Shown here in pieces: positions 2,845 through 48,992 of a DNA stretch of 64,000 nucleotides (positions are counted from its first letter, which is position 1; the number at the start of each line of letters is the position of its first letter). The DNA comes from Candidatus Shapirobacteria bacterium (GTDB lineage: Bacteria; Patescibacteriota; Microgenomatia; 0-14-0-10-38-17). The stretch covers positions 6,028-70,027 of the forward strand of contig JAQVIV010000001.1 of NCBI GenBank assembly GCA_028695445.1. Direction: 5' to 3'. The translations under genes were made by a program, and so were the position numbers. Below the pieces are notes generated by a model. That model saw only the letters and a program-made list of their open reading frames with translations. It had not been told where the DNA came from and made no database searches.

Positions 2845-3960
2845 ATGGCAACTGTTTTTATCAAAAAAGCCGCTCCTAAAACTGTTGTTGACGATTATCA
2901 AAATCTGTTGCGCCAATTCCGAAAACAACTTCCCTCGGGGGAGGCAATTATTATCAAGCTAAATTTATCCTGGACTAAGTTTTATCCGGCCTGCTCCTCG
3001 CCCCCTTGGCAATTAGAGGGAATAATTAAGGGTCTTTTATCACTGGGGTTTTCCCCAAAACAGATCATTCCAGTAGAAAATAAAACTGTCGTCACCAACG
3101 TTAAAAGGGGCGCCGTTAATCATGCTTGGAACAAGGTGTGCCAAAAATATGGGGTTCAAATTCACTTTTTAGACGATGAGCCATATCGTCTTTACCAACC
3201 CAAAGGTAAAATGTTAATCCTTGATAAAATCTTCCCTGCTGGTATTAGTCTACCAAAAATTGTTTTTAACAAACCCCTTATTAGTCTCTGCACACTAAAG
3301 ACCCATGTTTTTACCCAAAATACCGGAGCCATTAAAAATTATTTTGGTATGCTCGACACCAATCGCCACCACGCCCACCGTTTTATTCACCAGGCCATTA
3401 TCGATTTATTAACTATCCAAAAAGAGATTCACCCCCAAACAGTTGCCTTCATGGACGGAACAACCATTGGTTACGGCTCCGGCCCTCGAGCCATGAAACT
3501 AAAAAAAGCCGATCTTATTTTGGCTAGCACCGACCAGGTGGCTCTCGACTCAACAGCGGCCAAAATTATTGGCCTAAACAATAGCAAGATTAACTATCTT
3601 TGTTTAGGCGAAAAATTAAATCTTGGTGAAAACCGGTCCAAAAACATTCGCTTCCGCTTTTTTGGTCAAATCAATCAACTACCCAATTTTCGGCTCAAAG
3701 GAGCCGATAACGCCGCTTCTTGCGGACAAAAATTTATTTACCACCATTGCCCTTGGTGGCTAGAAAAATTATTATTACAAACTATTGTTGCCCCCTGGTC
3801 TTATCTGGCCTCACGTCTCTATTATGACTTCTATTGGTATCAGACAATAGGCAGAAAAAGGTTGAAAGCCTTTTTGGCATCCGATTGGGGAAAATTATTC
3901 CAAGAATACCAGCAAGAATCGCTTGGCAAAACTCAAAAATCTATTGGCCAATCAACTTGA
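2845..3960 (+). CDS. DUF362-family protein
   Basis: Recalled resemblance to DUF362 proteins (segment 'LCTLKTHVFTQNTGAIKNYFGML'). Family assignment from memory only. Confidence 0.4.
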   Translation: MATVFIKKAAPKTVVDDYQNLLRQFRKQLPSGEAIIIKLNLSWTKFYPACSSPPWQLEGIIKGLLSLGFSPKQIIPVENKTVVTNVKRGAVNHAWNKVCQKYGVQIHFLDDEPYRLYQPKGKMLILDKIFPAGISLPKIVFNKPLISLCTLKTHVFTQNTGAIKNYFGMLDTNRHHAHRFIHQAIIDLLTIQKEIHPQTVAFMDGTTIGYGSGPRAMKLKKADLILASTDQVALDSTAAKIIGLNNSKINYLCLGEKLNLGENRSKNIRFRFFGQINQLPNFRLKGADNAASCGQKFIYHHCPWWLEKLLLQTIVAPWSYLASRLYYDFYWYQTIGRKRLKAFLASDWGKLFQEYQQESLGKTQKSIGQST

Positions 3961-4477
3961 AGAAATCAAAATTTTTACTGTCCACCCGATAGATTTTAGT
4001 TTGGGGAATTTCTTTTCTTAAAAAGGAAACAATTTGGTTATCATCTTCAAAGTAAAAGTCTAACCCAAGCTTCTTAATTATTTTTTTCTTGAAAATATGA
4101 GGAAGCAAATCGGCCTCATTAATGAAAACCCCAGAAAGATTTCCCCCCAGCCCCTTTTTAGCCAGCCACTTGGCGGTTTCTTTTTCTAAAAAACTATAAC
4201 GGCCAGAAATTAAATAAACTTCAAAGTTGGGATCTTGGCTAATTTTTTTCAAGAAAGTCAAGTTTTTTCTTATCGGCGGACGAAAGAAAGAGTGATGCGA
4301 CAATTTCCTCAACCACTGGTGGCCTCTATTGGTAGGAAAATTGTAGACAAGGCCACAATCTTTTGTCCCCCGAAACAATCTTTCTAACCAAGTCTTTGGT
4401 ACCAAAGGCGGGCGATCAATAATCACCCCATCCAAATCAAAGCCAATTTTTATTCTTCTCTTTTTCATTAACTCCAA
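3941..4477 (-). CDS. HAD-superfamily hydrolase/phosphatase-like protein
   Basis: Motif I 'IGFDLDGVII' (DxDGV) near the N-terminus; acidic 'FEDD' motif IV near the C-terminus. Confidence 0.5.
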   Translation of the reverse strand: MELMKKRRIKIGFDLDGVIIDRPPLVPKTWLERLFRGTKDCGLVYNFPTNRGHQWLRKLSHHSFFRPPIRKNLTFLKKISQDPNFEVYLISGRYSFLEKETAKWLAKKGLGGNLSGVFINEADLLPHIFKKKIIKKLGLDFYFEDDNQIVSFLRKEIPQTKIYRVDSKNFDFFKLIGQ

Positions 4478-12021: not shown

Positions 12022-12120
12022 CCTGTTTAATTCCTAATTGTTCTAATTGATCTAAATAAACCCCAATTTTCAATTTTTAACTTTTAATTTTGAATTTTGA
12101 ATTTTGAATTGTTAATTATT

Positions 12121-12972
12121 CTATTTCTGGCACCCGGGACACCAAAAGGTACTACGATTATTTTGTTTGATTTTTTTTACTATCCCCCCACAGGAATAAC
12201 AAGGCTTGCCCTCTCTTTGATAAACCCCAAGCTTGTTCTGATATCGGCCCGGGGAGGCGTCAGGCCTAACATAGGCCTGATCGGCGGCGCTAGTGCCGCC
12301 ATAATCAATGGCTTCGGATAAAATTTCTTTTATGGCCCGATACAGCCTGCTAATCTCTTGGTCTGAGAGTGAGTTGGCCTGGCGGCGGGGGCTAACTCTT
12401 GCCGCAAATAAAACCTCGCTAGCATAGATATTGCCAATCCCCGCCACCAATCTTTGATCTAAAAGAGCCATTTTCACAACTCGCCTGGTCCGACCCAGAC
12501 TGTTAATAAAATACCTTAAAGTAAAATCTTTTCCTAATGGCTCCGGACCAAAGTCTGCCAGTTCTACCTCCGCCTGTTTTTTAGTTAAAAGCTTGAACCA
12601 GCCAAACTTTCTCAAGTCATTAAAAAATAGCCTTGAACTATCATCAAGGTTAATAACCAGCCTGGTTGTTTTGTTGGGCAATTGATTAAGAATAAACGGC
12701 AAGGGATGACCAACACTGACCAACCTCTTCTTGTTCGATAAATAGATAATCTGGCCGGTCATTTTAAGATGAACCAGCAAGATCAGACCGTTAATATCAA
12801 TAACCAATACTTTGGCCCGCCGCCAAATTGATTTAATCTCCCGGCCAACGACCTTTTTAGGATCACCCAAAAATTGTTTTTTTTCTAAGACCTCGATCTT
12901 GGCAATCTTTTTGCCAACAATTCTTTTTTCAAGTTCTCGCCTAACTGTTTCTACTTCCGGTAATTCGGGCAC
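12121..12972 (-). CDS. mutM: formamidopyrimidine-DNA glycosylase
   Basis: N-terminal 'MPELPEVETVRR', C-terminal zinc finger 'CYSCGG...FWCPGCQ'. Confidence 0.85.
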   Translation of the reverse strand: MPELPEVETVRRELEKRIVGKKIAKIEVLEKKQFLGDPKKVVGREIKSIWRRAKVLVIDINGLILLVHLKMTGQIIYLSNKKRLVSVGHPLPFILNQLPNKTTRLVINLDDSSRLFFNDLRKFGWFKLLTKKQAEVELADFGPEPLGKDFTLRYFINSLGRTRRVVKMALLDQRLVAGIGNIYASEVLFAARVSPRRQANSLSDQEISRLYRAIKEILSEAIDYGGTSAADQAYVRPDASPGRYQNKLGVYQREGKPCYSCGGIVKKIKQNNRSTFWCPGCQK

Positions 12973-13090: not shown

Positions 13091-13141
13091 CATTAAATCA
13101 TTAGGAATTGAATAGAAATTAAGAATTAGAAATTAGAAATT
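13091..13141. repeat. copy of dispersed AT-rich intergenic repeat (cattaaatcatta-gaatt-gaatagaaattaagaattagaaatt)
   Basis: About 90% identical to 51171-51213, and matches the reverse complement of 41451-41495. Confidence 0.5.
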
Positions 13142-17259: not shown

Positions 17260-17329
17260 TGCGGGGTAGTGTACGGTGGCACGTGAGGCTCATAATCTCA
17301 CAGATCAGGTTCAACTCCTGACCCCGCAA
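17260..17329 (+). tRNA. tRNA with CAT anticodon (Met elongator or Ile2/lysidine type); no encoded CCA
   Basis: Hand-folded cloverleaf. Acceptor tgcgggg/ccccgca; D stem gtgt/gcac; anticodon stem tgagg/tctca; loop ctCATaa; T arm tcagg-ttcaact-cctga. A TATAAT -10 sits at 17242-17247. Confidence 0.55.
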
Positions 17330-17366
17330 CATTGGCCGTTAATTTTTAGCCATTGGTCGTTGGCAA
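17305..17366 (+). repeat. direct repeat copy 1 (tRNA 3' end plus ~35 nt downstream)
   Basis: 'ttcaactcctgaccccgcaacatt' plus 'gg/ccgtta..tttagcc.ttggtcgttgg' repeats at 17512-17567. Confidence 0.6.
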
Positions 17367-17980: not shown

Positions 17981-18054
17981 GGCAGGGTAGCTCAGGTGGT
18001 TAGAGCAGGCGAATCATAACCGTCAGGTCGTCGGTTCAAATCCGACCCCTGCCA
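17981..18054 (+). tRNA. tRNA with CAT anticodon (D arm/anticodon stem 'gctcaggtggttagagcaggcga' resembles bacterial tRNA-Ile2 and elongator Met); no encoded CCA
   Basis: Acceptor ggcaggg/ccctgcc; D gctc/gagc; loop atCATaa; T arm gtcgg-ttcaaat-ccgac. Confidence 0.65.
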
Positions 18055-18166
18055 CTTTAGGCTATCAAAGAAATCGGGTTATTAAAGAAAAAAGTTATTT
18101 CTTCTTCCAGCCCGATCTCGTTTTTTAGCTTATAGGGATGGTGTGAACGATGTTCACACCATAGCC

Positions 18167-20412: not shown

Positions 20413-20487
20413 TGGTGCGCCTGCTTGGATTCGAACCAAGGACATCTACTTTATAAGAGTAGCGCTCTACCATTGAGCTACAGGCGC
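20413..20487 (-). tRNA. tRNA with TAT anticodon (predicted tRNA-Ile decoding AUA), CCA encoded
   Basis: Reverse-complement cloverleaf. Acceptor gcgcctg/caggcgc; D gctc/gagc; anticodon stem ctact/agtag; loop ctTATaa; T arm cttgg-ttcgaat-ccaag; terminal CCA. Confidence 0.6.
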
Positions 20488-20554: not shown

Positions 20555-22897
20555 TCACAGCTTCGCCCGCCTGGCTACCTGGGCCTCTATTAGGGCCCTG
20601 TCTTGAGCATATTTGAGCCGAGATAACTCAGTAATATTTTTGGCCAATTCCCAATTATCAAGAGCCTTTTCTTTGGCCATATCTTTGGTCAAATCAAGAG
20701 AAAATGGCGGCACCGGCTCATTATTAACAATAGTTTTAACATAGGCATTAAATCTTTCGATATTTAAAAGGTCGTTTTCAGAAAAATCCGGTTGGAGCTC
20801 GTGTTGAAGATAAGAAGCATCGGCCACCCCTACTCGAAAAGAAACCAGAGTGCCGACATTGCCAAAAACAGCATTTTTAACCTCTTCGTCCATCTGGCCA
20901 ATAAATTGGTTGGCTACTGTCAGATTAAGGTGATACTTTCTAGCCTCAGATAAAATTTGGGCAAAATCGGGAGTAGCAAAATTCTGAAATTCATCAACAT
21001 AAAGATAAAAATCACGCCGGTTGTCTTCAGGAATATCCTGCCGACTCATGGCGGCAATTAACAATTTAGGAATTAATACCAAGCCCAAAAAGCTTGAATT
21101 TTCCTCACCGATTTTACCCTTAGCTAAATTAATCAACAAGATTTTACCCTCATCCATCACCTTTCTAAAATCAAAGGCTGATTGTGATTGGCCGATAATG
21201 TTGCGCATCATGCTGTCGGTAACAAAACGGCCAAATTTGGAAACAATATAATCTAAAACTTCACTCTTGTGAAAATCGCTAGTTTGGGCAATTTGATCAG
21301 TCCAATAGCGGCGAACCATCGGATCCTTAAGTTTGGGCAGTAATTCCCGAACATAAGAAGCGTCAGTCAGAGCACGAACCACCTCAACAAAAGTCGCTCC
21401 TGGCTCAGTCATCACCGTTAACATGGCATTTCTAATGGCATGTTCAAACCGAGGGCCAATAATACCAGTCTTATAAGGATCATAAAGCTTGTACATTAGG
21501 TTAATAATTGAAGAAACCACAAAGTTTTTTTGCTCCTCGGTGTAGGCCTCTAAAAGATTAAGGCCCATAGGGCGGCTGGTATCGGAAGGATCAAAATAAA
21601 TAACATCTTCTGCTCGTTCAGCCGGGATTCTCGGCAAAATCTTTTCGATAGTATCATGAGGATCAATAAAACAAACCCCCTTGCCTTCTTCGATGTCCTG
21701 AACGATCATTTGTTTTAATAACTCCGACTTACCGGTGCCGGTTTTACCAATAATATAAACATGGCGGCGGCGATCGTCTTCAGAAAGACAAACCGACCGG
21801 ATTTCGCCCCGATGAACGCTTTTCCCCAGATAAAGACCGCTTTTAGGTACTTCGGGCGGCACTGGAGCTCTTTTGGCATTAAGCCAAGCGATATTGGGTG
21901 TTTCCACCGTCTTATTGGGTAGATGAAAAATTGTTGCTAATTCTGCCGAATTAAGAATAATTCTATTTTTATTTAACGGCCAAAGCGGCCGATAGCGGTA
22001 AATAAAATCAATCATAAAGGTTCTTTTCCACCAAATTTTCTTACTGCTAAAACCGTTTTGATCAGAGCTAAACTGAGACAAGGCGCTTTTAATCGAAGAC
22101 AAATGAGCCTTGGCCTGCTCAATACTTTTCGAACAAACCACCACCCTTAACTCAACTTCAAAACCGGGCCTAGAACATTTTTCATCAATCTGCTCCAGGG
22201 TTTTACTATCAACTTTAAATTCGGCTTTTTCAGGATCAGCTTCCTTTTTCTTGGTCGATGATAAAAAAGACCGGCCCAGCTTTTGCCACTTGCTCCCGGT
22301 AGGGGCAATCAAAATTTGAATAGCAACCCCCTCCCCCTCAATAAGCTTGGATAGGGTTGAGGCTAAAGAAGAAAGAGGATCAACAGAAAAATCCTGATAG
22401 GTTTTAATGGGATAAAAGGGTGAATTTTTAAACTCAAAAACGGCATAGGCGACCTTACTGTCTTTGCTAAAAATATTGTATTCGTCTACCCTCTTAATCA
22501 CTGCCGTCGGGTAAAGACCATAAATCTGGCGCTCTAAAAGATCAACTTTTTTTTGAGGAATAGCAAAATAAAAGCGAATGCTGTCCTGAGTACCAACAAT
22601 TTCGGCGGTAAAAAAAAATTTAGGCTTTAAAAAGGCCAATTTGCCGCCAACTTTTAAGGAGTGTAGGTTGGTAAAGAGTTGTTCGGCGGCATCAATTTTA
22701 ATTTCATTGTCACGGGGCAAGATTACTTGCAGTAAAACCAAATCCAAGGAGTGTTGTTCCCGATTCCTTTCTCGCCAAAGCAAAAACAAGAAATAGATTA
22801 AAAATCCCAATAGAAACAAGAAAAAAACCGCCGCTCCTCCCAAGACAAAATAACGAATTAACAAATAAAATAAATCATTAAGGCTGTTAATAATCAT
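20555..22897 (-). CDS. membrane-anchored P-loop ATPase of the VirD4/TraD coupling-protein / HerA-FtsK (DUF87-like) type
   Basis: N-terminal TM segment. Walker A 'IIGKTGTGKSELL', Walker B 'FYLYVDEFQNF', and 'ARKYHLNLTVANQ' arginine-finger region typical of T4SS coupling ATPases. Confidence 0.5.
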   Translation of the reverse strand: MIINSLNDLFYLLIRYFVLGGAAVFFLFLLGFLIYFLFLLWRERNREQHSLDLVLLQVILPRDNEIKIDAAEQLFTNLHSLKVGGKLAFLKPKFFFTAEIVGTQDSIRFYFAIPQKKVDLLERQIYGLYPTAVIKRVDEYNIFSKDSKVAYAVFEFKNSPFYPIKTYQDFSVDPLSSLASTLSKLIEGEGVAIQILIAPTGSKWQKLGRSFLSSTKKKEADPEKAEFKVDSKTLEQIDEKCSRPGFEVELRVVVCSKSIEQAKAHLSSIKSALSQFSSDQNGFSSKKIWWKRTFMIDFIYRYRPLWPLNKNRIILNSAELATIFHLPNKTVETPNIAWLNAKRAPVPPEVPKSGLYLGKSVHRGEIRSVCLSEDDRRRHVYIIGKTGTGKSELLKQMIVQDIEEGKGVCFIDPHDTIEKILPRIPAERAEDVIYFDPSDTSRPMGLNLLEAYTEEQKNFVVSSIINLMYKLYDPYKTGIIGPRFEHAIRNAMLTVMTEPGATFVEVVRALTDASYVRELLPKLKDPMVRRYWTDQIAQTSDFHKSEVLDYIVSKFGRFVTDSMMRNIIGQSQSAFDFRKVMDEGKILLINLAKGKIGEENSSFLGLVLIPKLLIAAMSRQDIPEDNRRDFYLYVDEFQNFATPDFAQILSEARKYHLNLTVANQFIGQMDEEVKNAVFGNVGTLVSFRVGVADASYLQHELQPDFSENDLLNIERFNAYVKTIVNNEPVPPFSLDLTKDMAKEKALDNWELAKNITELSRLKYAQDRALIEAQVARRAKL

Positions 22898-23289
22898 AGC
22901 TCGCTTTTGAAATTAACCTGATGGCCTAACATTTTAGTTACCCTCTTTGACCATTCTGATAACCAGCGCCAAGCCGACTCAATTGATTCTTTTAAACCGG
23001 CTCGATATTCAGTTAAAGTTAGGGGCAAAATAATCTTGGGGGGTTGGGCCTGAGGAGAAGTTACTATAATTTGGCCGGTTTGGTCATCCAAAACTTGATT
23101 AGTCAAAAAGTGATCTTCTTTTTCAATTTTTTCTAAATAACCATCCAGCTCTGGGGAGAGTTTTGGAAAATGACCAATTTCAATAATATTGGCCTTCTCC
23201 TCCCCAAGACTTTCTTGAGACAATCTTTGAGGCTCTCTTTCCTTGCTGGCAAAACCGGTTGGGCTAGTATCACCTGATGCCATCTTCAC
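22894..23289 (-). CDS. small acidic hypothetical protein, translationally coupled to the downstream ATPase
   Basis: 131-aa ORF. Its stop overlaps the ATPase start (ATGA). No recognizable motifs. Confidence 0.35.
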   Translation of the reverse strand: MKMASGDTSPTGFASKEREPQRLSQESLGEEKANIIEIGHFPKLSPELDGYLEKIEKEDHFLTNQVLDDQTGQIIVTSPQAQPPKIILPLTLTEYRAGLKESIESAWRWLSEWSKRVTKMLGHQVNFKSEL

Positions 23290-23330: not shown

Positions 23331-24059
23331 TTAAAAATCACCGCCTGCCTGAGGAATAATTGACTGGGCCGCCGCCAGCAAAGATCCAAGTTCTTGACCG
23401 GTAAAGGGAGGCAAACGATTAAACTTCTCGTCAAGACAATTTTGAGGAAGAAATTTTTGCAAACGCCAAACCAGGCTCTTGGGATTAATCTTATTTTTTA
23501 AAGCAAGACTTTTTATCTCTTTGGCCAAAAGGGTCAAATTTTTTGAATTATGAATTGTCGGCACCAGAGTCGTTCGCAATTGATAATCAAGACCGCTGGT
23601 GATAATTAAAGCCAAAGATTGAATAATTCTTTCATAACTAATTTTAGTTAACAAGGAATAATTTTTTTTATCTACTTTAATATCCATGGCAATAAAATCA
23701 ATCAACCTTTTACTGATTAAATCCTCTACCACCTCAGGCCTTCCGCCATTGGTATCCAGTTTTATTAAAAGGCCTTTATTTTTAATTTTTTGGCAAAAAG
23801 AAGCTAAATCCGGTTGAATGGTTGGTTCCCCACCGGTTAGGCAAACCCCATCTAAAATTTTTTGCCGTTTGTCTAAAAAATTAAAAAAATCCTTTTCCTT
23901 AATTTCTGATAAGGAAGACTTTTTAAATTTTTTTTTGAGAACCAGATCTTTATTATGGCAATAAGGACAAGAGAAGTTGCAGCCAACCGTAAAAATAGTG
24001 CAAGCCACCTTGCCGGGATAGTCGATTAAGGTTGTTTTCTGAAGACCACCTAGTAGCAT
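23331..24059 (-). CDS. nrdG: anaerobic ribonucleoside-triphosphate reductase activating protein (radical SAM)
   Basis: 'GCNFSCPYCHNKD' CxxxCxxC, 'LTGGEPT'. Confidence 0.8.
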   Translation of the reverse strand: MLLGGLQKTTLIDYPGKVACTIFTVGCNFSCPYCHNKDLVLKKKFKKSSLSEIKEKDFFNFLDKRQKILDGVCLTGGEPTIQPDLASFCQKIKNKGLLIKLDTNGGRPEVVEDLISKRLIDFIAMDIKVDKKNYSLLTKISYERIIQSLALIITSGLDYQLRTTLVPTIHNSKNLTLLAKEIKSLALKNKINPKSLVWRLQKFLPQNCLDEKFNRLPPFTGQELGSLLAAAQSIIPQAGGDF

Positions 24060-24085
24060 GAATAGAATTTCTAATTAGAACAATT

Positions 24086-24235
24086 TTATTTTCCGCTGTA
24101 CTCTTTCCTCATCTGATACTCGGACGCTTTGCCTTCGTTCCATTGGCTAACCGGACGCAAATAACCAACAATCCGGGAATAAACCTCGCAGGGGGTGCGA
24201 TCTTTTGGAGTTGCCTTGTTTTTCTTTTTAACCAT
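24086..24235 (-). CDS. 49-aa ORF encoding the NrdD C-terminal glycyl-radical domain (MVKKKNKATPKDRTPCEVYSRIVGYLRPVSQWNEGKASEYQMRKEYSGK)
   Basis: Hand-translated; not in the ORF track (<60 aa). 'RIVGYL...WN.GK..E...R' matches the class III RNR glycyl-radical loop (E. coli 'RVCGYLG..WNKGK'). SD 'GGAGG' 7 nt upstream of the ATG. Lies between truncated nrdD and nrdG. Confidence 0.55.
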   Translation of the reverse strand: MVKKKNKATPKDRTPCEVYSRIVGYLRPVSQWNEGKASEYQMRKEYSGK

Positions 24236-24484
24236 AATTTCACCTCCTCGAAATTAGTATTTAGTATTTAGAATATAGTATATAGAGTTAAAAAAATTTT
24301 AATTTTTAATTCCTAATCTCTAACTTTCTGCCCAAAAAGAACAGGTGGTTCGCGCGATAAATTGCGCTATTCTATTAGAGAAAGATAAAATAGCGAATTT
24401 TAATTCGCGCATTTGACACGAACCGGAAATCCGCTACTACAAAACAATAAAGCAATTCAGCAATTTAACAGTTTAGCAATTTAG

Positions 24485-26545
24485 CTACTTCTCCTTATAC
24501 CCTATTTCTTCGTCGCACCTAGGACAAAATTGCCACTCGCCTGACAAATAACCATGCTTTGGACAAACAGAAAAGGTTGGGGTAATGGAAAAATAAGGCA
24601 GTTTATAATTGGCTGTTACTTTTTGGAGCAGATTTTTAACGCTTTCGGTATCAGGCAAACTTTCCCCTAAAAAGCCATGGATGACAGTGCCACCCGTATA
24701 CTTACATTGTAATTCATCCTGATGATCCAGGGCCTCAAAAAGGTCGGTGGTGTAATCGACCGGCAAATGAGTCGAGTTGGTATAAAAAGGCGCTTCTTTC
24801 TTTTCTTGGTAATTTTTTTCATTAGCACAAATAATTTTGGGAAATTGCTCTTTATCCAGCCTGGCGAAACGATAGGCGGTGCTTTCCGCCGGTGTGGCTT
24901 CAAGATTAAACATTTCCCCAGTTTCTTGCTGGTAAATTAAAATTTTTTCCCGCATATAATCCATTACCTCTAAAGCAAAAGCTTGCCCTTCGGGGTCGGC
25001 AATATTTTTCCCCATCAAGTTAACCAAGGCCTCATTCATACCGTTTAAGCCAATGGTGTTAAAGTGGTTGCGCCAGTAAACTTTATTGCGCTGATAAATA
25101 TCAGATAAATAATGGCGGCAGTAGGGGTACAGGCCGTCGTGGGTAAATTTTTCCACCGCCTCTCTTTTAATTATCAGCGAATCTTTGGCCAAATCCATTA
25201 GACGGCCAAGGAGAGTAAAGAATTTTCTTTTGGCAAATCCCTCGGTTTTAGAGCTTGCTTTGGCCAAATAACCAATTCGAGGCAAGTTGATGGTAACCAC
25301 CCCCAAGGAACCGGTTAGGGGATTGGCAGCAAACAACCCGCCTCGCCGCCTTAATTCCCGATTATCTAAGCGCAAACGACAACACATACTTCGAGCATCG
25401 TCAGGATCCATATCAGAATTAACAAAATTAGAAAAATAGGGAATACCATATTTTCTGGTCATTTCCCAAACCGGCTCCAAATTTTTATTATTCCAATCGA
25501 AGTCCTTGGTAATTGAATAGGTTGGAATTGGGAAGGTAAAGACTCGCCCTTGAGCATCGCCCTCCATCATGGTTTCGGCAAAAGCTCGATTAATCATATC
25601 CATTTCTTTTTGAAAATCTTCATACTTATCTTGGGTTGGCTGGCCGGCAATAACAACCGTTTCCTCGCCGACCATTTTGGTAGGATGAATATCCAAAGAA
25701 ATATTGGAAAAGGGGGTTTGGAAGCCCACTCTGGTAGGAACATTCATATTAAAAACAAACTCTTGAAGAGCCTGTTTAACCTGTTTATAGGTTAGGTTGT
25801 CATAACGAACAAAAGGAGCCAAATAGGTATCAAAATTGGAGACTGCTACTGCTCCAGCCACCTCGCCTTGAATGGTATACATAAAATTAACAATCTGCCC
25901 TAGAGCCGAAGAAAGGTGCCTTGGAGGAGCACTGTTAACCTTGCCGGAAACGCCGCCAAATCCCTTAATTAAAAAGTCTTTTAAGTCCCAGCCGGTACAA
26001 TAGGCCGAAAGGGAAGACAAATCATGAATGTGAAGATCGCCTTGGCGATGAGCCTTTCTTACCTCTCGAGAATAAATTTTATTAAGCCAAAAATTGGCCG
26101 AAATTATACTGGCCACATGATTATTCAAGCCCTGTAAAGAATAGGTCATGTTGGCATTCTCCTTTACTCGCCAGTCGCCCTGATTAAGATATTTTTCTGT
26201 TAACTCATCGGCATCGACCAAACTGCTAACGCTTCTTAATTTTTGGTGAAGCTGACGATAAAGGGTGTAGGCGCTATGGACTTCTTCGTGAGCACGCCTT
26301 AATAGAGTCTGCTCAACAATATCTTGAACCTGTTCTACCTCGGGAGTAATGGAAGAATTAAACCGCTTCTCAAGTTCTAAAACCACCTCTTTGGTTAGGC
26401 GGCGAACCTCTTGAACATCATCTTTACCGGCAGCCTTAAAAGCGGCCTTAATCGCCCTTCCAATCTTATTAGGACTAAAGGCCACTATCCGGCCATTTCT
26501 TTTTTTGATCCTGGTAATTTTTGATTTTATTCCTCCTCTAACCAT
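24485..26545 (-). CDS. nrdD: anaerobic ribonucleoside-triphosphate reductase large subunit (class III RNR), ending right after the Zn ribbon
   Basis: N-terminal ATP-cone ('KITRIKKRNGRIVAFSPNKIGRAIKAA'), conserved class III core, C-terminal 'CPKH...CPRC' Zn site; stops 9 residues later, before the 'RxxGY' glycyl-radical loop. Confidence 0.85.
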   Translation of the reverse strand: MVRGGIKSKITRIKKRNGRIVAFSPNKIGRAIKAAFKAAGKDDVQEVRRLTKEVVLELEKRFNSSITPEVEQVQDIVEQTLLRRAHEEVHSAYTLYRQLHQKLRSVSSLVDADELTEKYLNQGDWRVKENANMTYSLQGLNNHVASIISANFWLNKIYSREVRKAHRQGDLHIHDLSSLSAYCTGWDLKDFLIKGFGGVSGKVNSAPPRHLSSALGQIVNFMYTIQGEVAGAVAVSNFDTYLAPFVRYDNLTYKQVKQALQEFVFNMNVPTRVGFQTPFSNISLDIHPTKMVGEETVVIAGQPTQDKYEDFQKEMDMINRAFAETMMEGDAQGRVFTFPIPTYSITKDFDWNNKNLEPVWEMTRKYGIPYFSNFVNSDMDPDDARSMCCRLRLDNRELRRRGGLFAANPLTGSLGVVTINLPRIGYLAKASSKTEGFAKRKFFTLLGRLMDLAKDSLIIKREAVEKFTHDGLYPYCRHYLSDIYQRNKVYWRNHFNTIGLNGMNEALVNLMGKNIADPEGQAFALEVMDYMREKILIYQQETGEMFNLEATPAESTAYRFARLDKEQFPKIICANEKNYQEKKEAPFYTNSTHLPVDYTTDLFEALDHQDELQCKYTGGTVIHGFLGESLPDTESVKNLLQKVTANYKLPYFSITPTFSVCPKHGYLSGEWQFCPRCDEEIGYKEK

Positions 26546-26738: not shown

Positions 26739-29666
26739 TTACTCCCACTGATCACAAACCATCTTAAAAGGACAAAAGTCGCACCAAAAACCAGGCTTGG
26801 GGGTAAAGTCACTTTGATTAATTTGTTCTATTGTTTTAACCAAGTTTTTTCTTGCTTGGGCTAGCTCCTGTCGAGTTTTTTTAACCGAAACCTTTTGACC
26901 GGTGGCTAAAAAATAAAAAGTTCCGGTTAAATTCTTAGGATCGGCTCCTAAAATGCCCCGATCGGCCGCCGCTAAAAGGTAAAGGTTCATCTGAAGGCTT
27001 TTGTTGGCTTGTTTTTGATCCAAAGGCTGACCAGTTTTATAGTCAATAATTTCCCAAGCATTTTGCCTCTTGTCAACCCGGTCAAAAACACCAGCAATTT
27101 TAATTTTTTCTGTTAAGAAAAAATTGAATTTCCTTTCTAAAAAATGAGGAAGATTATCTTGATTAAAATCTTCCTGATAAAAACGCTCTAGCATTGCTCG
27201 GCCCTCTTTAAAAAGGCGCTTTTCATGATGGAAAGAAGCGTAGCCAAAGGAAAGCCAATTAGCCTGATACAAATTCAATAAATCTTTCAGACCAGTCTTT
27301 CCCTTTGGGGCAGTTTTAAAAAATTGATGCAGGGTCTGATGAATAGTAATACCAAAGCTCTGAACTCCGCTAGGAGCAATGGGAATTTTTTGTAAATACT
27401 GATGGCGATATTGGGCCGGACAGTGCTCAAAAGCAGTGATTTGAGAAAAGGAAAAATGATCAATTGGCTGTTTGGCAACAAGAGGAGTCTCCGGCTCGAT
27501 TTTGACTGTTTTAAACTTCAACAAGGATAATTGATTGGTTTTGGGCGGCTGATGATCAACCGCCTCCCGACCCAAAGATTCATAAACAAAGGGGGAAATT
27601 CTCAAAGAGCGCTTCCCTTCGCCATAAACCCGGGAGGCGGTTAAAAAAAGCCTTTCTTTGGCCCGGGTCATACCAACATAAAAAAGCCGCCGTTCCTCTT
27701 GCTGGTGATAGTCTCCCTGAGGCAAGATTTCTCGAATTAGTTGATCTGGAATAGGAATTTGCTCCCTTCGACGATGGGTGGGAAAACGGCCAGAAACCAA
27801 ATTAACCAGAAAAACCACCCCAAACTCTAACCCCTTAGCTGAATGAACAGTCAAAATGTTAACTTTATCTTCTAGAAACCAATCGTCATTATTGGCCGCT
27901 GGCGACTCGCCCAAATCAAGAGCCAACCTTAACCAGCTAACAACCGAACGAAGACTGGCATCATCATGGTTCATCTCATAGACAGATAAACGGTCAAAAA
28001 ACTTGGCAATGTTGGCTACCCTCTTTTCCTCTCGAGGAGAATTAGCCTGAGTCAAACTTTTGAGCAAGCCGGAATCTTCCAAAAAATAAAAAAGGAGCTG
28101 ACCGGCACTTTTTTCTTTCGCTAACTCCCAATGACGATTAACCATTGTCAATAACTGGTCCAGTTTTTCTTGGGTTTCAAGAGAAAGAGAGGGCAGTCTG
28201 ACCTTATTAGCCTTGTTTTCATCCTGATCCAAAACCAGGTTAACCGCCTTAAACAAACTAACGGCGGTTTTTCGGGAAAAACTACCCAAAAGAGCCAAAT
28301 CTCGGCCAGACAAATTAATCGGCTGATGAGCCAGCAGGCGATAAAAAGAGGCATCATCCCCCGGATCAGCTAAAAAAAATAGATAAGCGATCAAATTTTT
28401 AATTTCTTCCTGGCGAAAAAGCTGGCCCGGTCCCAAAAACTGATAGGGAATCCCCATCCAGGAAAGAGCTTTCATAAAAGGACCGGCATGGTTATTGGCC
28501 CGAACCAAAATGGCAAAATCTGACCAGGCAAGCTTTGGCCTTTTTTCCTTTAAGGACTCAATAATTTTAGCCACTTCTTCTGCCTCAGAATTAACTTGAG
28601 CAGTATAAACAAATTCGACTCCCTCCCCTGAACCGGTAAGACTTTGCAGATTTTTATCAATGCCAAGCCTTGCTTCTAGAGTATCGGGGTTATTGTGCTG
28701 AATCAGTCGATAGGCGGCGTCTAAAATCTTTTGACCTGACCGATAATTTTTAGTTAAAACTATTGACTTGGCCTGTTTATAGTCGGCCATAAACTGCAAA
28801 ACATTAGACACCGCCGCACCTCGAAACCGATAAATCGACTGAGAGTCATCAGCCACCACCGAAAGGCCGGAGTTTTTATCGGGCGGAACCAAAAGTTTAA
28901 TTAGATGGTATTGGGCGATGTTGGTATCCTGAAACTCGTCAACCAAAAAAAATTTAAACTTATTTTGATAACCGGCCAAAACATTGGGCCGCCGACGAAA
29001 TAGTTTTAATGTTTGGGTAATTAAATCACCAAAATCCATTAAGCTTTCTTTTTGCTTTAAAGATTCATAATCCCAATAAGCCTGAGCCAACTCCAGGTGT
29101 TTTTTACTTTCTATTTTCACTTCTTTTTCTTTTAATTTTAAATTTTTAGCTTCGAATTGTTTGGCCCAAGCAAAATATTGCTTGGGGGTAATATCCTCAT
29201 CTTGCAGCCGAGAAAAATGATTTAAAAGACCAGTGATGAATCGATTGGGGTTGCCAAGGGGACGAAAGTAATCTAGATTCAAGTCGAATAGGTGATCGGT
29301 TAAAAATTGGACAGTTTCCGATTGACTCATCAAAACAAAGCCCGGGTCTAAACCTATAGCGGCCGCCTCATCTTTTAAGATGCGATCACAAAAGGCATGA
29401 AAAGTCATAATCCAGGCATCGGTATAACCATAGGGAAGGGCAATATCAACTCGCTCTTCCATCTCAAGAGCAGCCTTTTCAGTGAAAGTAAGAGCTAAAA
29501 TTTCTTCGGGAGAAGCTTGCTTTTTAGCAATTAAATATTTAATTTTTTCAGTAATAACAGTGGTTTTTCCTGTTCCGGCCCCCGCCACGATCAGCAAGGG
29601 CGAAGACAAATGTTCAACTGCTTGTTTTTGAGCCGAATTTAATTTCTTCGCTTCTTTTAACATCAC
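26739..29666 (-). CDS. UvrD-family helicase fused to a C-terminal RecB/Cas4-like PD-(D/E)XK nuclease with Fe-S cysteines (AddA-like helicase-nuclease)
   Basis: Walker A 'AGAGTGKTTVIT', 'VDEFQDTN'. C-terminal 'HCPAQYRHQYL', 'IIDYKTGQ', 'WCDFCPFKMVCD' nuclease/4-Cys motifs. No addB partner in the window. Confidence 0.7.
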   Translation of the reverse strand: MMLKEAKKLNSAQKQAVEHLSSPLLIVAGAGTGKTTVITEKIKYLIAKKQASPEEILALTFTEKAALEMEERVDIALPYGYTDAWIMTFHAFCDRILKDEAAAIGLDPGFVLMSQSETVQFLTDHLFDLNLDYFRPLGNPNRFITGLLNHFSRLQDEDITPKQYFAWAKQFEAKNLKLKEKEVKIESKKHLELAQAYWDYESLKQKESLMDFGDLITQTLKLFRRRPNVLAGYQNKFKFFLVDEFQDTNIAQYHLIKLLVPPDKNSGLSVVADDSQSIYRFRGAAVSNVLQFMADYKQAKSIVLTKNYRSGQKILDAAYRLIQHNNPDTLEARLGIDKNLQSLTGSGEGVEFVYTAQVNSEAEEVAKIIESLKEKRPKLAWSDFAILVRANNHAGPFMKALSWMGIPYQFLGPGQLFRQEEIKNLIAYLFFLADPGDDASFYRLLAHQPINLSGRDLALLGSFSRKTAVSLFKAVNLVLDQDENKANKVRLPSLSLETQEKLDQLLTMVNRHWELAKEKSAGQLLFYFLEDSGLLKSLTQANSPREEKRVANIAKFFDRLSVYEMNHDDASLRSVVSWLRLALDLGESPAANNDDWFLEDKVNILTVHSAKGLEFGVVFLVNLVSGRFPTHRRREQIPIPDQLIREILPQGDYHQQEERRLFYVGMTRAKERLFLTASRVYGEGKRSLRISPFVYESLGREAVDHQPPKTNQLSLLKFKTVKIEPETPLVAKQPIDHFSFSQITAFEHCPAQYRHQYLQKIPIAPSGVQSFGITIHQTLHQFFKTAPKGKTGLKDLLNLYQANWLSFGYASFHHEKRLFKEGRAMLERFYQEDFNQDNLPHFLERKFNFFLTEKIKIAGVFDRVDKRQNAWEIIDYKTGQPLDQKQANKSLQMNLYLLAAADRGILGADPKNLTGTFYFLATGQKVSVKKTRQELAQARKNLVKTIEQINQSDFTPKPGFWCDFCPFKMVCDQWE

Positions 29667-41450: not shown

Positions 41451-41553
41451 AAATTTCTAATTTTTAATTCTTATTGAATTTCTAATGATTTAATGTTTTA
41501 AGCATTTAGACAATAAAAATTGAATAGAAATTAGAAATTAAGAATTAGAAATT
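41451..41553. repeat. inverted pair of the dispersed AT-rich intergenic repeat (reverse-complement copy 41451-41495, ~25-nt spacer, direct copy 41520-41553)
   Basis: Reverse complement of 41451-41495 is 'cattaaatcattagaaattcaataagaattaaaaattagaaattt', near-identical to 51171-51213. Confidence 0.55.
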
Positions 41554-41573
41554 ATTTACCTAGATACTATACT

Positions 41574-48836: not shown

Positions 48837-48992
48837 AAATTAAAAACAAATTGCTAAATTGCTACATTGTCTAATTGCTTTTTTAGGCTTGTTTTTAATA
48901 GCAAAAACATCGCCAACAATTTAACAATTCAGCAGTGTAACAATGTTCTTTTCATTAAAAATTAGAAATTAGAAATTTTTAAGGAAAGGGGG

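Follow-up and report, generated by a model that had tools for sequence, protein, structure and literature searches.

Can the glycyl radical domain of an anaerobic ribonucleotide reductase (RNR) be made as a protein of its own? Glycyl radical enzymes (GREs) are viewed as single chains, in which the radical domain swings out to the activase and back for catalysis, and the only exception to 'one chain, one radical domain' that we know of is GrcA (also referred to as YfiD), which serves pyruvate formate-lyase (PFL). The question is raised by the nrdD locus in a stretch of 64,000 nucleotides from a Candidatus Shapirobacteria genome (assembly GCA_028695445.1, contig JAQVIV010000001.1, positions 6,028 to 70,027), hereafter the window. 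A preliminary description of this DNA had pointed out that nrdD stops after its Zn ribbon and that the glycyl-radical loop follows in a separate open reading frame (ORF) of 49 aa, and had offered two explanations: an autonomous radical domain analogous to GrcA, or a gene interrupted by a small intron or insertion. Our comparisons indicate that the locus very probably encodes a genuine two-polypeptide class III (anaerobic) RNR, in which the radical domain is a separate small protein. Its parts, in the order of transcription, are as follows.

24485-26545, minus strand: nrdD-L, the large subunit of class III RNR, 686 aa
26243-26512, minus strand: ATP-cone, residues 12-101 of nrdD-L (Pfam PF03477, E 3e-20)
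25379-25384, minus strand: Cys388-Cys389 in the 'RSMCCRLRLD' loop of nrdD-L, a motif identical in the intact homologue P0252
24515-24565, minus strand: predicted Zn-ribbon ligand motif CPKH...CPRC, residues 661-677 of nrdD-L, read from the sequence
24488-24514, minus strand: C-terminal tail DEEIGYKEK of nrdD-L, with the clade motif C-D-x-E-I-G-[YWF]
24236-24484, no strand assigned: non-coding spacer of 249 nt, with an 8-mer array, an imperfect hairpin and a 7-mer array
24241-24247, minus strand: Shine-Dalgarno (SD) sequence GGAGGTG, 5 nt before the nrdD-S ATG, read from the sequence
24086-24235, minus strand: nrdD-S, the 49-aa glycyl-radical subunit (MVKKKNKATPKDRTPCEVYSRIVGYLRPVSQWNEGKASEYQMRKEYSGK), assigned with Pfam, NCBIfam and alignments
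24164-24166, minus strand: codon of Gly24, the predicted radical-bearing glycine of RIVGY, an invariant alignment column
23331-24059, minus strand: nrdG, the radical-SAM activase, 242 aa, co-oriented and 26 nt downstream of nrdD-S

The large ORF consists of an ATP-cone, a catalytic barrel and a Zn ribbon, just as the preliminary description had it, and is without a glycyl-radical domain. Residues 129-679 correspond to positions 1-529 of the 562 in the NRDD core model (PF13597, E 1e-182, Pfam), and the chain also matches NF006126 over positions 3-651 of 684 (993 bits, cutoff 548, NCBIfam) and TIGR02487 (515 bits, cutoff 326), as well as the Protein Data Bank (PDB) entries 8p23, 9d3x, 4coi and 1h78. 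The alignment to Thermotoga maritima NrdD (4coi) reaches residue 609, and P0252, an intact homologue of 711 aa, can be aligned colinearly over residues 6-677, through the Zn ribbon, with 53% identity. Within the barrel, Cys388-Cys389 form what we take to be the thiyl-radical site (the finger-loop cysteine), which must face the glycyl radical. The CPKH...CPRC motif lines up with CPTH...CPKC of P0252 and with the CxxH/CxxC of 60 intact loci, and this element, which is predicted to bind Zn, is the last conserved one of nrdD-L. The C-terminus reads '...VCPKHGYLSGEWQFCPRCDEEIGYKEK', with the stop 9 residues past CPRC; beyond its own Zn ribbon, the P0252 chain runs on into '...QPCEVYSRVVGYLRPVSQWNEGK...'. 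The C-D-x-E-I-G-[YWF] tail is found in split large subunits only, whereas intact relatives carry a linker of 3-5 residues there; the same tail occurs at loci L001, L004, L007, L015, L022, L036, L042, L054 and L073 and in the cluster representatives P0241, P0245, P0247, P0248 and P0297. The 'EIGY' of this tail resembles the 'RIVGY' of the radical loop, but is out of register with it.

The 49-aa ORF, with a ribosome-binding site (RBS) of its own and on the same strand, is likewise where it had been reported, and it does carry the radical loop. It begins with a Lys-rich N-terminal extension, which is followed by the core R-T-x-CEVYSRIVGYLRPVSQWNxGK..E...R. This protein matches positions 531-562 of the 562 in the NRDD model (E 5.5e-10, Pfam) and positions 639-682 of the 684 in NF006126 (NCBIfam), and it aligns to residues 613-644 of T. 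maritima NrdD, RIVGY radical loop included, with Gly24 paired with the G of 'RIVGYL'. An alignment of 32 sequences (A1) has 15 invariant columns. In Pfam and NCBIfam, nrdD-S is matched by NrdD models only, with no PFL/GrcA-type model reported, and neither database (release of June 2026) holds a model dedicated to the small protein. The assignment of the next gene to nrdG is borne out by a TIGR02495 (NrdG2) score of 185 bits against a cutoff of 131, by the Pfam domains Radical_SAM and Fer4_12 and by the cluster motif CNFSCPYC (CxxxCxxC).

Taken together, the two ORFs account for complete NrdD models (NRDD positions 1-529 plus 531-562; NF006126, the closest NCBIfam equivalog, positions 3-651 plus 639-682), and the alignments to full-length proteins proposed in the preliminary description give the same picture, as T. 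maritima NrdD is followed up to residue 609 by one ORF and from 613 to 644 by the other, and P0252 is colinear. Intact relatives have a linker of 3-5 residues between Zn ribbon and radical loop, and it is there that the gene is broken; nrdD-S is therefore equivalent to the complete segment found within the barrel of the single-chain enzymes. The usual mark of a class III RNR, an RxxGY motif at the C-terminus of the same polypeptide, is thus absent from nrdD-L, and RIVGY sits on the separate 49-aa ORF. This is the one glycyl-radical motif in the 64-kb window. With a large chain that has no radical domain and a small one that bears the sole radical motif, nrdD-S is expected to be an obligate subunit and not a spare.

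An obvious concern is that the locus is a decaying nrdD, left as a pseudogene by a nonsense mutation or an insertion, or that it is an assembly error. Broken genes do accumulate in the reduced genomes of symbionts, and the tandem repeats and hairpin at the junction are typical of insertions. However, an identical nrdD-S is present on a contig of another Candidatus Shapirobacteria metagenome-assembled genome (MAG; GCA_028715945.1) and on three independently assembled Logan contigs, and across window positions 24000-24600 these four assemblies differ from the window by 1, 0, 0 and 0 mismatches, so that the artefact which the preliminary description had named as a possible refutation does not apply. 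Given these assemblies and the stand-alone nrdD-S homologues in over 100 clusters, the arrangement lies well outside what chance would give. The split, which it had also proposed to look for in related genomes, is kept in two more distant syntenic relatives; the shared gene order runs from a UvrD-like helicase through nrdD-L, nrdD-S, nrdG and an ORF of ~130 aa to a DUF8128 ATPase, and nrdG is syntenic in relatives L081-L091. Between the window and L081, dN/dS is 0.039 for nrdD-L, 0.052 for nrdD-S and 0.060 for nrdG, at a dS of ~1 or more that is near saturation, and nrdD-S is thus under purifying selection as strong as that on nrdD-L. Such low ratios on three genes do not fit decay, nor does an nrdD-S core that is invariant over more than 100 bacterial and archaeal clusters, nor do the large split clades described below, and we regard decay or misassembly as highly improbable.

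How widespread is this arrangement? The small-ORF alignment was scanned against GTDB species represented by one genome each, which returned 80 loci; of these, ~63 hold an intact NrdD and 13 are split at exactly the nrdD-L/nrdD-S position (a T or V stands for the Cys in L006, L011 and L043, which are intact, L003 is ambiguous through assembly Ns, and L018 was unmatched by the relaxed motif pattern yet scored as intact in the tree). At each of the 17 split loci examined in total, a large ORF without the radical domain has a small ORF next to it. The stop of the former and the ATG of the latter overlap or abut in 8 of them (as an ATGA overlap in L001, L012 and L020); the distance is 13-18 nt in 3 others and 70-304 nt in the remaining 6, and an AGGAGG or GAGGTG RBS nearly always precedes the small ORF. 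Overlapping or abutting ORFs are the classic signature of translationally coupled cistrons. Homologues of nrdD-S number 199, and the best 120 of these are all 39-86 aa long; almost all of them start with Met, followed by a hydrophilic extension that varies, although a few are pieces from the C-terminus of an intact NrdD, and more than 100 clusters are stand-alone. The core R-T/Q-x-C-E-V-Y-S-R-I/V-V-G-Y-L-R-P-V-x-Q-W-N-x-G-K is essentially invariant across the homologues, whose named sources include Shapirobacteria, Azambacteria, Pacearchaeota and Nanoarchaeota.

The same picture emerges from the large subunit. An exhaustive HMMER search was made with nrdD-L against NrdD clusters at 50% identity, and of the 150 representatives nearest to it at least 65 end just past the Zn ribbon without a radical motif, ~58 were scored as intact and 27 were unscorable. 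The radical-domain-less representatives belong mostly to the Patescibacteria, or candidate phyla radiation (CPR), and to the DPANN archaea, and the tails of the shortened NrdDs are of several types (CDxEIGY..., CDAELLAKK... and CPYPHTEEELxxFG...), with one member of the last type followed, 16 nt downstream, by a radical-domain ORF of 57 aa. When 198 NrdD cores were stripped of inteins and placed on a neighbour-joining tree (hmmalign match columns), the split state required 24 changes, compared with 62.8 when the states are shuffled (minimum 55), and some clades of 9-10 members, diverged to 65% identity, are purely split. This clustering shows that the split state is heritable and long-lived, though it was gained or reverted more than once.

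Several relatives depart from this pattern in other ways. In a Moraniibacteriota MAG (L030:3650-4114), nrdD is broken elsewhere: a C-terminal piece of ~150 aa, which runs from 'EPFYTNSSQLPV...' and includes both Zn ribbon and radical loop, is on its own, and the end of an unrelated ORF of 351 aa lies ~1 kb upstream of the radical motif; an intron, an endonuclease or an insertion may lie behind this break. An intact NrdD at L008 (~3900-4162) has an unusually long linker of 28 residues (CPRCEETERIFMTAGTGTEVKAGHFTGYRQPCEVYSR) between Zn ribbon and radical loop, and may be the re-fusion of a formerly split gene. The NrdDs of close relatives (L085:75-3377; P0241-P0390) are heavily invaded by inteins (Intein_splicing plus LAGLIDADG), many having one to four of them, with lengths of up to 1879 aa and up to four matched stretches. 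Insertions recur near residues 275/276 and 387-389 of nrdD-L; the second of these points is that of the catalytic CC motif, where match boundaries in long relatives suggest an intein.

What, then, is the 249-nt spacer between the two ORFs? Its best stem lies at ~24389-24438, with an alternative pairing at 24351-24409 (z = -3.2 for 24340-24440), so that the imperfect hairpin noted before is indeed there, and a terminator-like stem is found at 24393-24408. Tandem arrays flank it, one of 8-mers of the AAATTGCT type (24451-24485) and one of 7-mers just before the RBS (24254-24285). The spacer has no ORF of 60 aa or more, a single ORF of 30 aa being without homology evidence, and no endonuclease gene lies between the pieces here or at the other split loci. 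NrdR boxes were looked for by eye, with no convincing palindrome in the spacer. The array types of the spacer, AAATTGCT x4 included, recur in the intergenic region 48848-48977. A mobile element was considered as well: blastn of the spacer against the window matched only the short AAATTGCT array at 48848-48879, and a repeated mobile element is therefore not supported.

The intron that the preliminary description had in mind, be it a small self-splicing one or another intervening sequence removed at the RNA level, would leave a mature mRNA that encodes a single-chain NrdD. Precedent exists in phages, in which nrdD is the RNR gene most often split: that of T4 contains a group I intron, and that of Aeromonas phage phiAS4 is fragmented (PMC2988022, PMC3653736). 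The two ORFs of the window also share one frame, and the whole spacer folds somewhat better than shuffled sequences (z = -2.4). Yet a search of 23900-24800 with the Rfam covariance models, group I and II introns among them, gave no intron or credible family even at E <= 10, the top noise being Ysr35 with 24 bits against a gathering score of 428. The spacers of the window and two syntenic relatives, 249, 304 and 123 nt long, cannot be aligned; DNA identity to L081 is 0.48 in the spacer, compared with 0.50 after shuffling, while nrdD-L, nrdD-S and nrdG retain 83%, 85% and 74%. All that is conserved in the spacer region of the window, L081 and L085 is the last nrdD-L codons and the RBS/ATG block GGAGGTGgtGAtaATTATGG. 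Alignment and folding of the relatives' spacers revealed no common RNA structure: each long spacer has its own arrays and hairpins, unrelated in sequence to the others, and folding strength varies from z = -5.2 (L036) through -3.2 (L081) to +0.4 (L085). What is more, the 8 split loci without any intervening sequence show that the junction cannot be an intron, and a conserved SD, a conserved ATG and a clade-specific nrdD-L tail would be pointless in a gene that is spliced. An intron, or another sequence removed from the RNA, is accordingly extremely unlikely. The junction, tight in most relatives, has grown in the window, where short tandem arrays and a hairpin seem to have accumulated; we take the spacer for ordinary intergenic DNA that evolves fast, possibly holds a terminator and/or a promoter and has no functional part in the split.

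Two further observations concern such intergenic DNA. In the spacer of the closest relative, L081 (L081:3172-3290), a degenerate second copy of the nrdD-L tail-coding sequence (EIGY...stop) lies ~55 nt past the functional one, which suggests a local duplication or insertion at the junction. Elsewhere in the window, intergenic tandem arrays of 7-8 nt units (AAATTGCT x4, TAGAAAT x4, TTAGTAT x4.6, CAATTTT x9) are found at 12064-12126, 13113-13141, 41525-41554, 48848-48879 and 48954-48977 in addition to the two in the spacer, often beside hairpins and just upstream of an RBS, and may be promoter, terminator or binding-site modules.

The two products could also be joined into one chain after transcription, either by recoding (frameshifting, readthrough or ribosomal bypass) or by protein trans-splicing. 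The overlapping ATGA junctions of some relatives could allow frameshifting, and the conserved core of nrdD-S starts with a Cys, like a C-extein. In the window, however, the ribosome would have to cross 249 nt with 7 stops in the nrdD-L frame, which nrdD-S shares, and several in each other frame, and every small ORF has its own ATG and nearly always an SD. As for a split intein, the 9 and 15 non-homologous residues at the two ends are far too short for one, and no Pfam intein domain is found in either ORF, while the real inteins of the relatives were readily detected. We consider it exceedingly improbable that the two products of the window become a single chain in either way.

The first of the two original suggestions, an autonomous protein of the GrcA kind, holds in part. 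There is indeed a separately translated, conserved and selected protein that consists of the radical domain only, but it appears to be obligate and not spare, and it is of the NrdD and not of the PFL/GrcA type. For nrdD-S to be a true GrcA-like spare, an intact NrdD would have to be encoded elsewhere in the genome, of which the window covers 64 kb. Against this stand the absence of a second radical motif from the window and a large subunit that is full length but for its radical domain, is held at a dN/dS of 0.039 and would be useless without the peptide, in addition to the pairing at 17 of the 17 split loci; Patescibacteria, with their small genomes, as a rule have a single RNR. One observation does favour a spare, namely that a related stand-alone radical-domain family exists in oxidative-stress operons and in viruses, so that the concept has a counterpart in nature. 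On balance, a spare part is a very unlikely role for nrdD-S itself.

That related family is distinct from nrdD-S. Its members, 86-146 aa long and falling into ~60 clusters, have a CHDC...KCxxC Zn ribbon of their own and an NrdD-type radical core (CEVYSR(I/V)VGY(L/I)RPVxQWNxGK) as in nrdD-S. They occur in 3 of the 80 scanned loci (L005, L049 and L069), no member is encoded in the 64-kb window, and nrdD is not adjacent to the gene in any context inspected. The cellular and the viral or phage-like members are encoded at:

L069, 3821-4129: stand-alone family gene
L092, 8001-8306 (also L093 and L094): stand-alone family gene
P0161 contigs: stand-alone family gene
L005, 3752-4135: stand-alone family gene
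L049, ~3761-4102: stand-alone family gene
L101, 12507-12941: viral or phage-like member
L095, 8001-8441: viral or phage-like member
L097, 5001-5261: viral or phage-like member
L099, 5001-5375: viral or phage-like member

At five bacterial loci, the family gene lies in a cluster of Fur with superoxide dismutase (SOD) or of Fur with rubrerythrin. In Parcubacteria/Pacebacteria, there is an overlap between the stand-alone gene and the stop of a Fur-family regulator, and the next gene after the stand-alone one encodes Fe/Mn SOD (L092-L094) or rubrerythrin (L069); on the P0161 contigs, SOD comes after the stand-alone gene, with no Fur gene before it. The L005 gene lies beside genes for pyruvate:ferredoxin oxidoreductase subunits and for a PLP-dependent enzyme, with no oxidative-stress gene nearby. 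L101 is the archaeal virus ANMV-1 (KP703175.1, 38 kb), which encodes a 144-aa member (AJP62049.1); of its 69 annotated features, 64 were inspected, with no large nrdD or nrdG among them, and neither gene is found in the ±5-8-kb flanks on the phage-like contigs. Occurring in cells as well as viruses, the family mirrors the pair formed by GrcA (cell) and Y06I (phage T4) for PFL, which makes it a better candidate for a true class III RNR spare part than nrdD-S, and by this analogy it may be such a part, under oxidative-stress control. Its presence in Fur-SOD and Fur-rubrerythrin operons and in viruses lends indirect support to the idea that a radical domain can be replaced after damage by O2.

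How does the two-gene enzyme compare with known systems? With canonical NrdD/NrdG (Escherichia coli; phage T4, 1h78; T. maritima, 4coi/4u3e; Prevotella copri, 8p23) it shares the domain order, the RxxGY motif and the adjacent radical-SAM activase. In contrast to them, the radical loop and C-terminal segment form a gene product of their own, the large chain ends in a CDxEIGY tail and the small chain has a hydrophilic N-extension and its own start and RBS. Like GrcA/YfiD of E. coli and Y06I of T4, nrdD-S is a small, separately encoded protein with a glycyl-radical motif, and by analogy with GrcA it would presumably be activated by its partner's activase and complete a large protein that has no working radical domain. 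GrcA is a homologue of the PFL C-terminus and serves as a backup for an enzyme with a radical domain of its own, whereas nrdD-S is an NrdD-type peptide and the sole radical domain of its partner; the two also differ in size (127 aa for YfiD, 49 aa here). YfiD/GrcA completes O2-cleaved PFL in trans (PMC8683613, PMC13450708), and according to a 2026 review of GREs, spare parts are known only for formate-lyases, the case of other GREs being open (PMC13450708). In phage Aeh1, nrdA is split by the homing endonuclease gene mobE, and the pieces form a fully active class I RNR (PMC2988022). These two precedents, YfiD/GrcA and Aeh1 NrdA, make a two-piece mechanism credible. As in the phage 'genes-in-pieces', an RNR catalytic gene is here divided into separate coding regions whose products must reassemble; unlike there, no endonuclease or intron lies between the pieces and the break falls exactly at the radical-domain boundary. 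Moreover, the phage splits are sporadic, whereas the present one is a stable trait of cells, passed on through many lineages of the CPR and DPANN and in most cases translationally coupled. In the full texts that were searched, which cover few subscription journals, neither a split cellular NrdD nor an RNR spare part is described.

In the model that we propose for the two-polypeptide RNR, nrdD-S would be translated from its own strong RBS, with stop/start coupling in most relatives, and the adjacent activase NrdG would abstract a hydrogen from Gly24. The peptide would then sit non-covalently in the nrdD-L barrel, opposite the RSMCCRL loop, where the glycyl radical would give rise to the thiyl radical. 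Glycyl radicals are destroyed by O2 through chain cleavage at the glycine, so damage would cost only the 49-residue peptide, and it is plausible that a fresh copy could then replace it. Whether the split is an adaptation of this kind and not a neutral gene break, with a cheap and exchangeable 'cofactor peptide' of 40-60 residues that is swapped after O2 cleavage, is a more tentative matter; we think it possible, but rather doubtful.

Some points weigh against a genuine two-polypeptide enzyme. We know of no demonstration, for NrdD, that an untethered peptide of 49 aa assembles into the barrel, and the two-gene enzyme is described here from its sequence. The view is of 64 kb of a genome, in the rest of which an intact nrdD or an RNR of another class may lie. 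On the tree, the split state does not form one clade, and some of the representatives counted as split may be ORFs truncated at contig ends. Finally, the terminator-like hairpin in the spacer could lower, and not raise, nrdD-S expression.

The genes around the locus are as follows.

26739-29666, upstream of the nrd genes: UvrD/PcrA-like helicase with a PD-(D/E)XK nuclease domain
20555-23289, downstream of the nrd genes: an unannotated 131-aa ORF and a 780-aa DUF8128/DUF87 ATPase
20413-20487, minus strand: tRNA-Ile with anticodon UAU
17260-17330 and 17981-18055: tRNA genes with anticodon CAU

A tRNA-Ile with a UAU anticodon is uncommon in bacteria.

What does a two-polypeptide class III RNR mean for the organisms that have it? 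A split is found in roughly 40% of the nearest cluster representatives. Annotators should be aware that ORFs of 40-60 aa under the name 'anaerobic ribonucleoside-triphosphate reductase' or 'hypothetical' are real genes and no fragments, as are the neighbouring NrdDs that look 'truncated'. In these lineages the radical domain of an RNR probably functions, or at least is maintained, as an independent protein of 5-6 kDa, which would provide a ready minimal system for the study of radical installation, docking, and O2 damage and repair. Should the split prove adaptive, the peptide would be a natural minimal substrate for work on glycyl-radical installation, and NrdG could activate it in its free form, without a tethered domain first having to leave the barrel. 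Together with the Zn-ribbon radical-domain family, it would then extend the 'spare part' principle from PFL to class III RNR. It would also give the ultra-small anaerobes of the CPR and DPANN a built-in repair cycle for the only RNR they have. The split itself suggests a way in which episymbionts that are strict anaerobes and have a single RNR might withstand transient oxygen.

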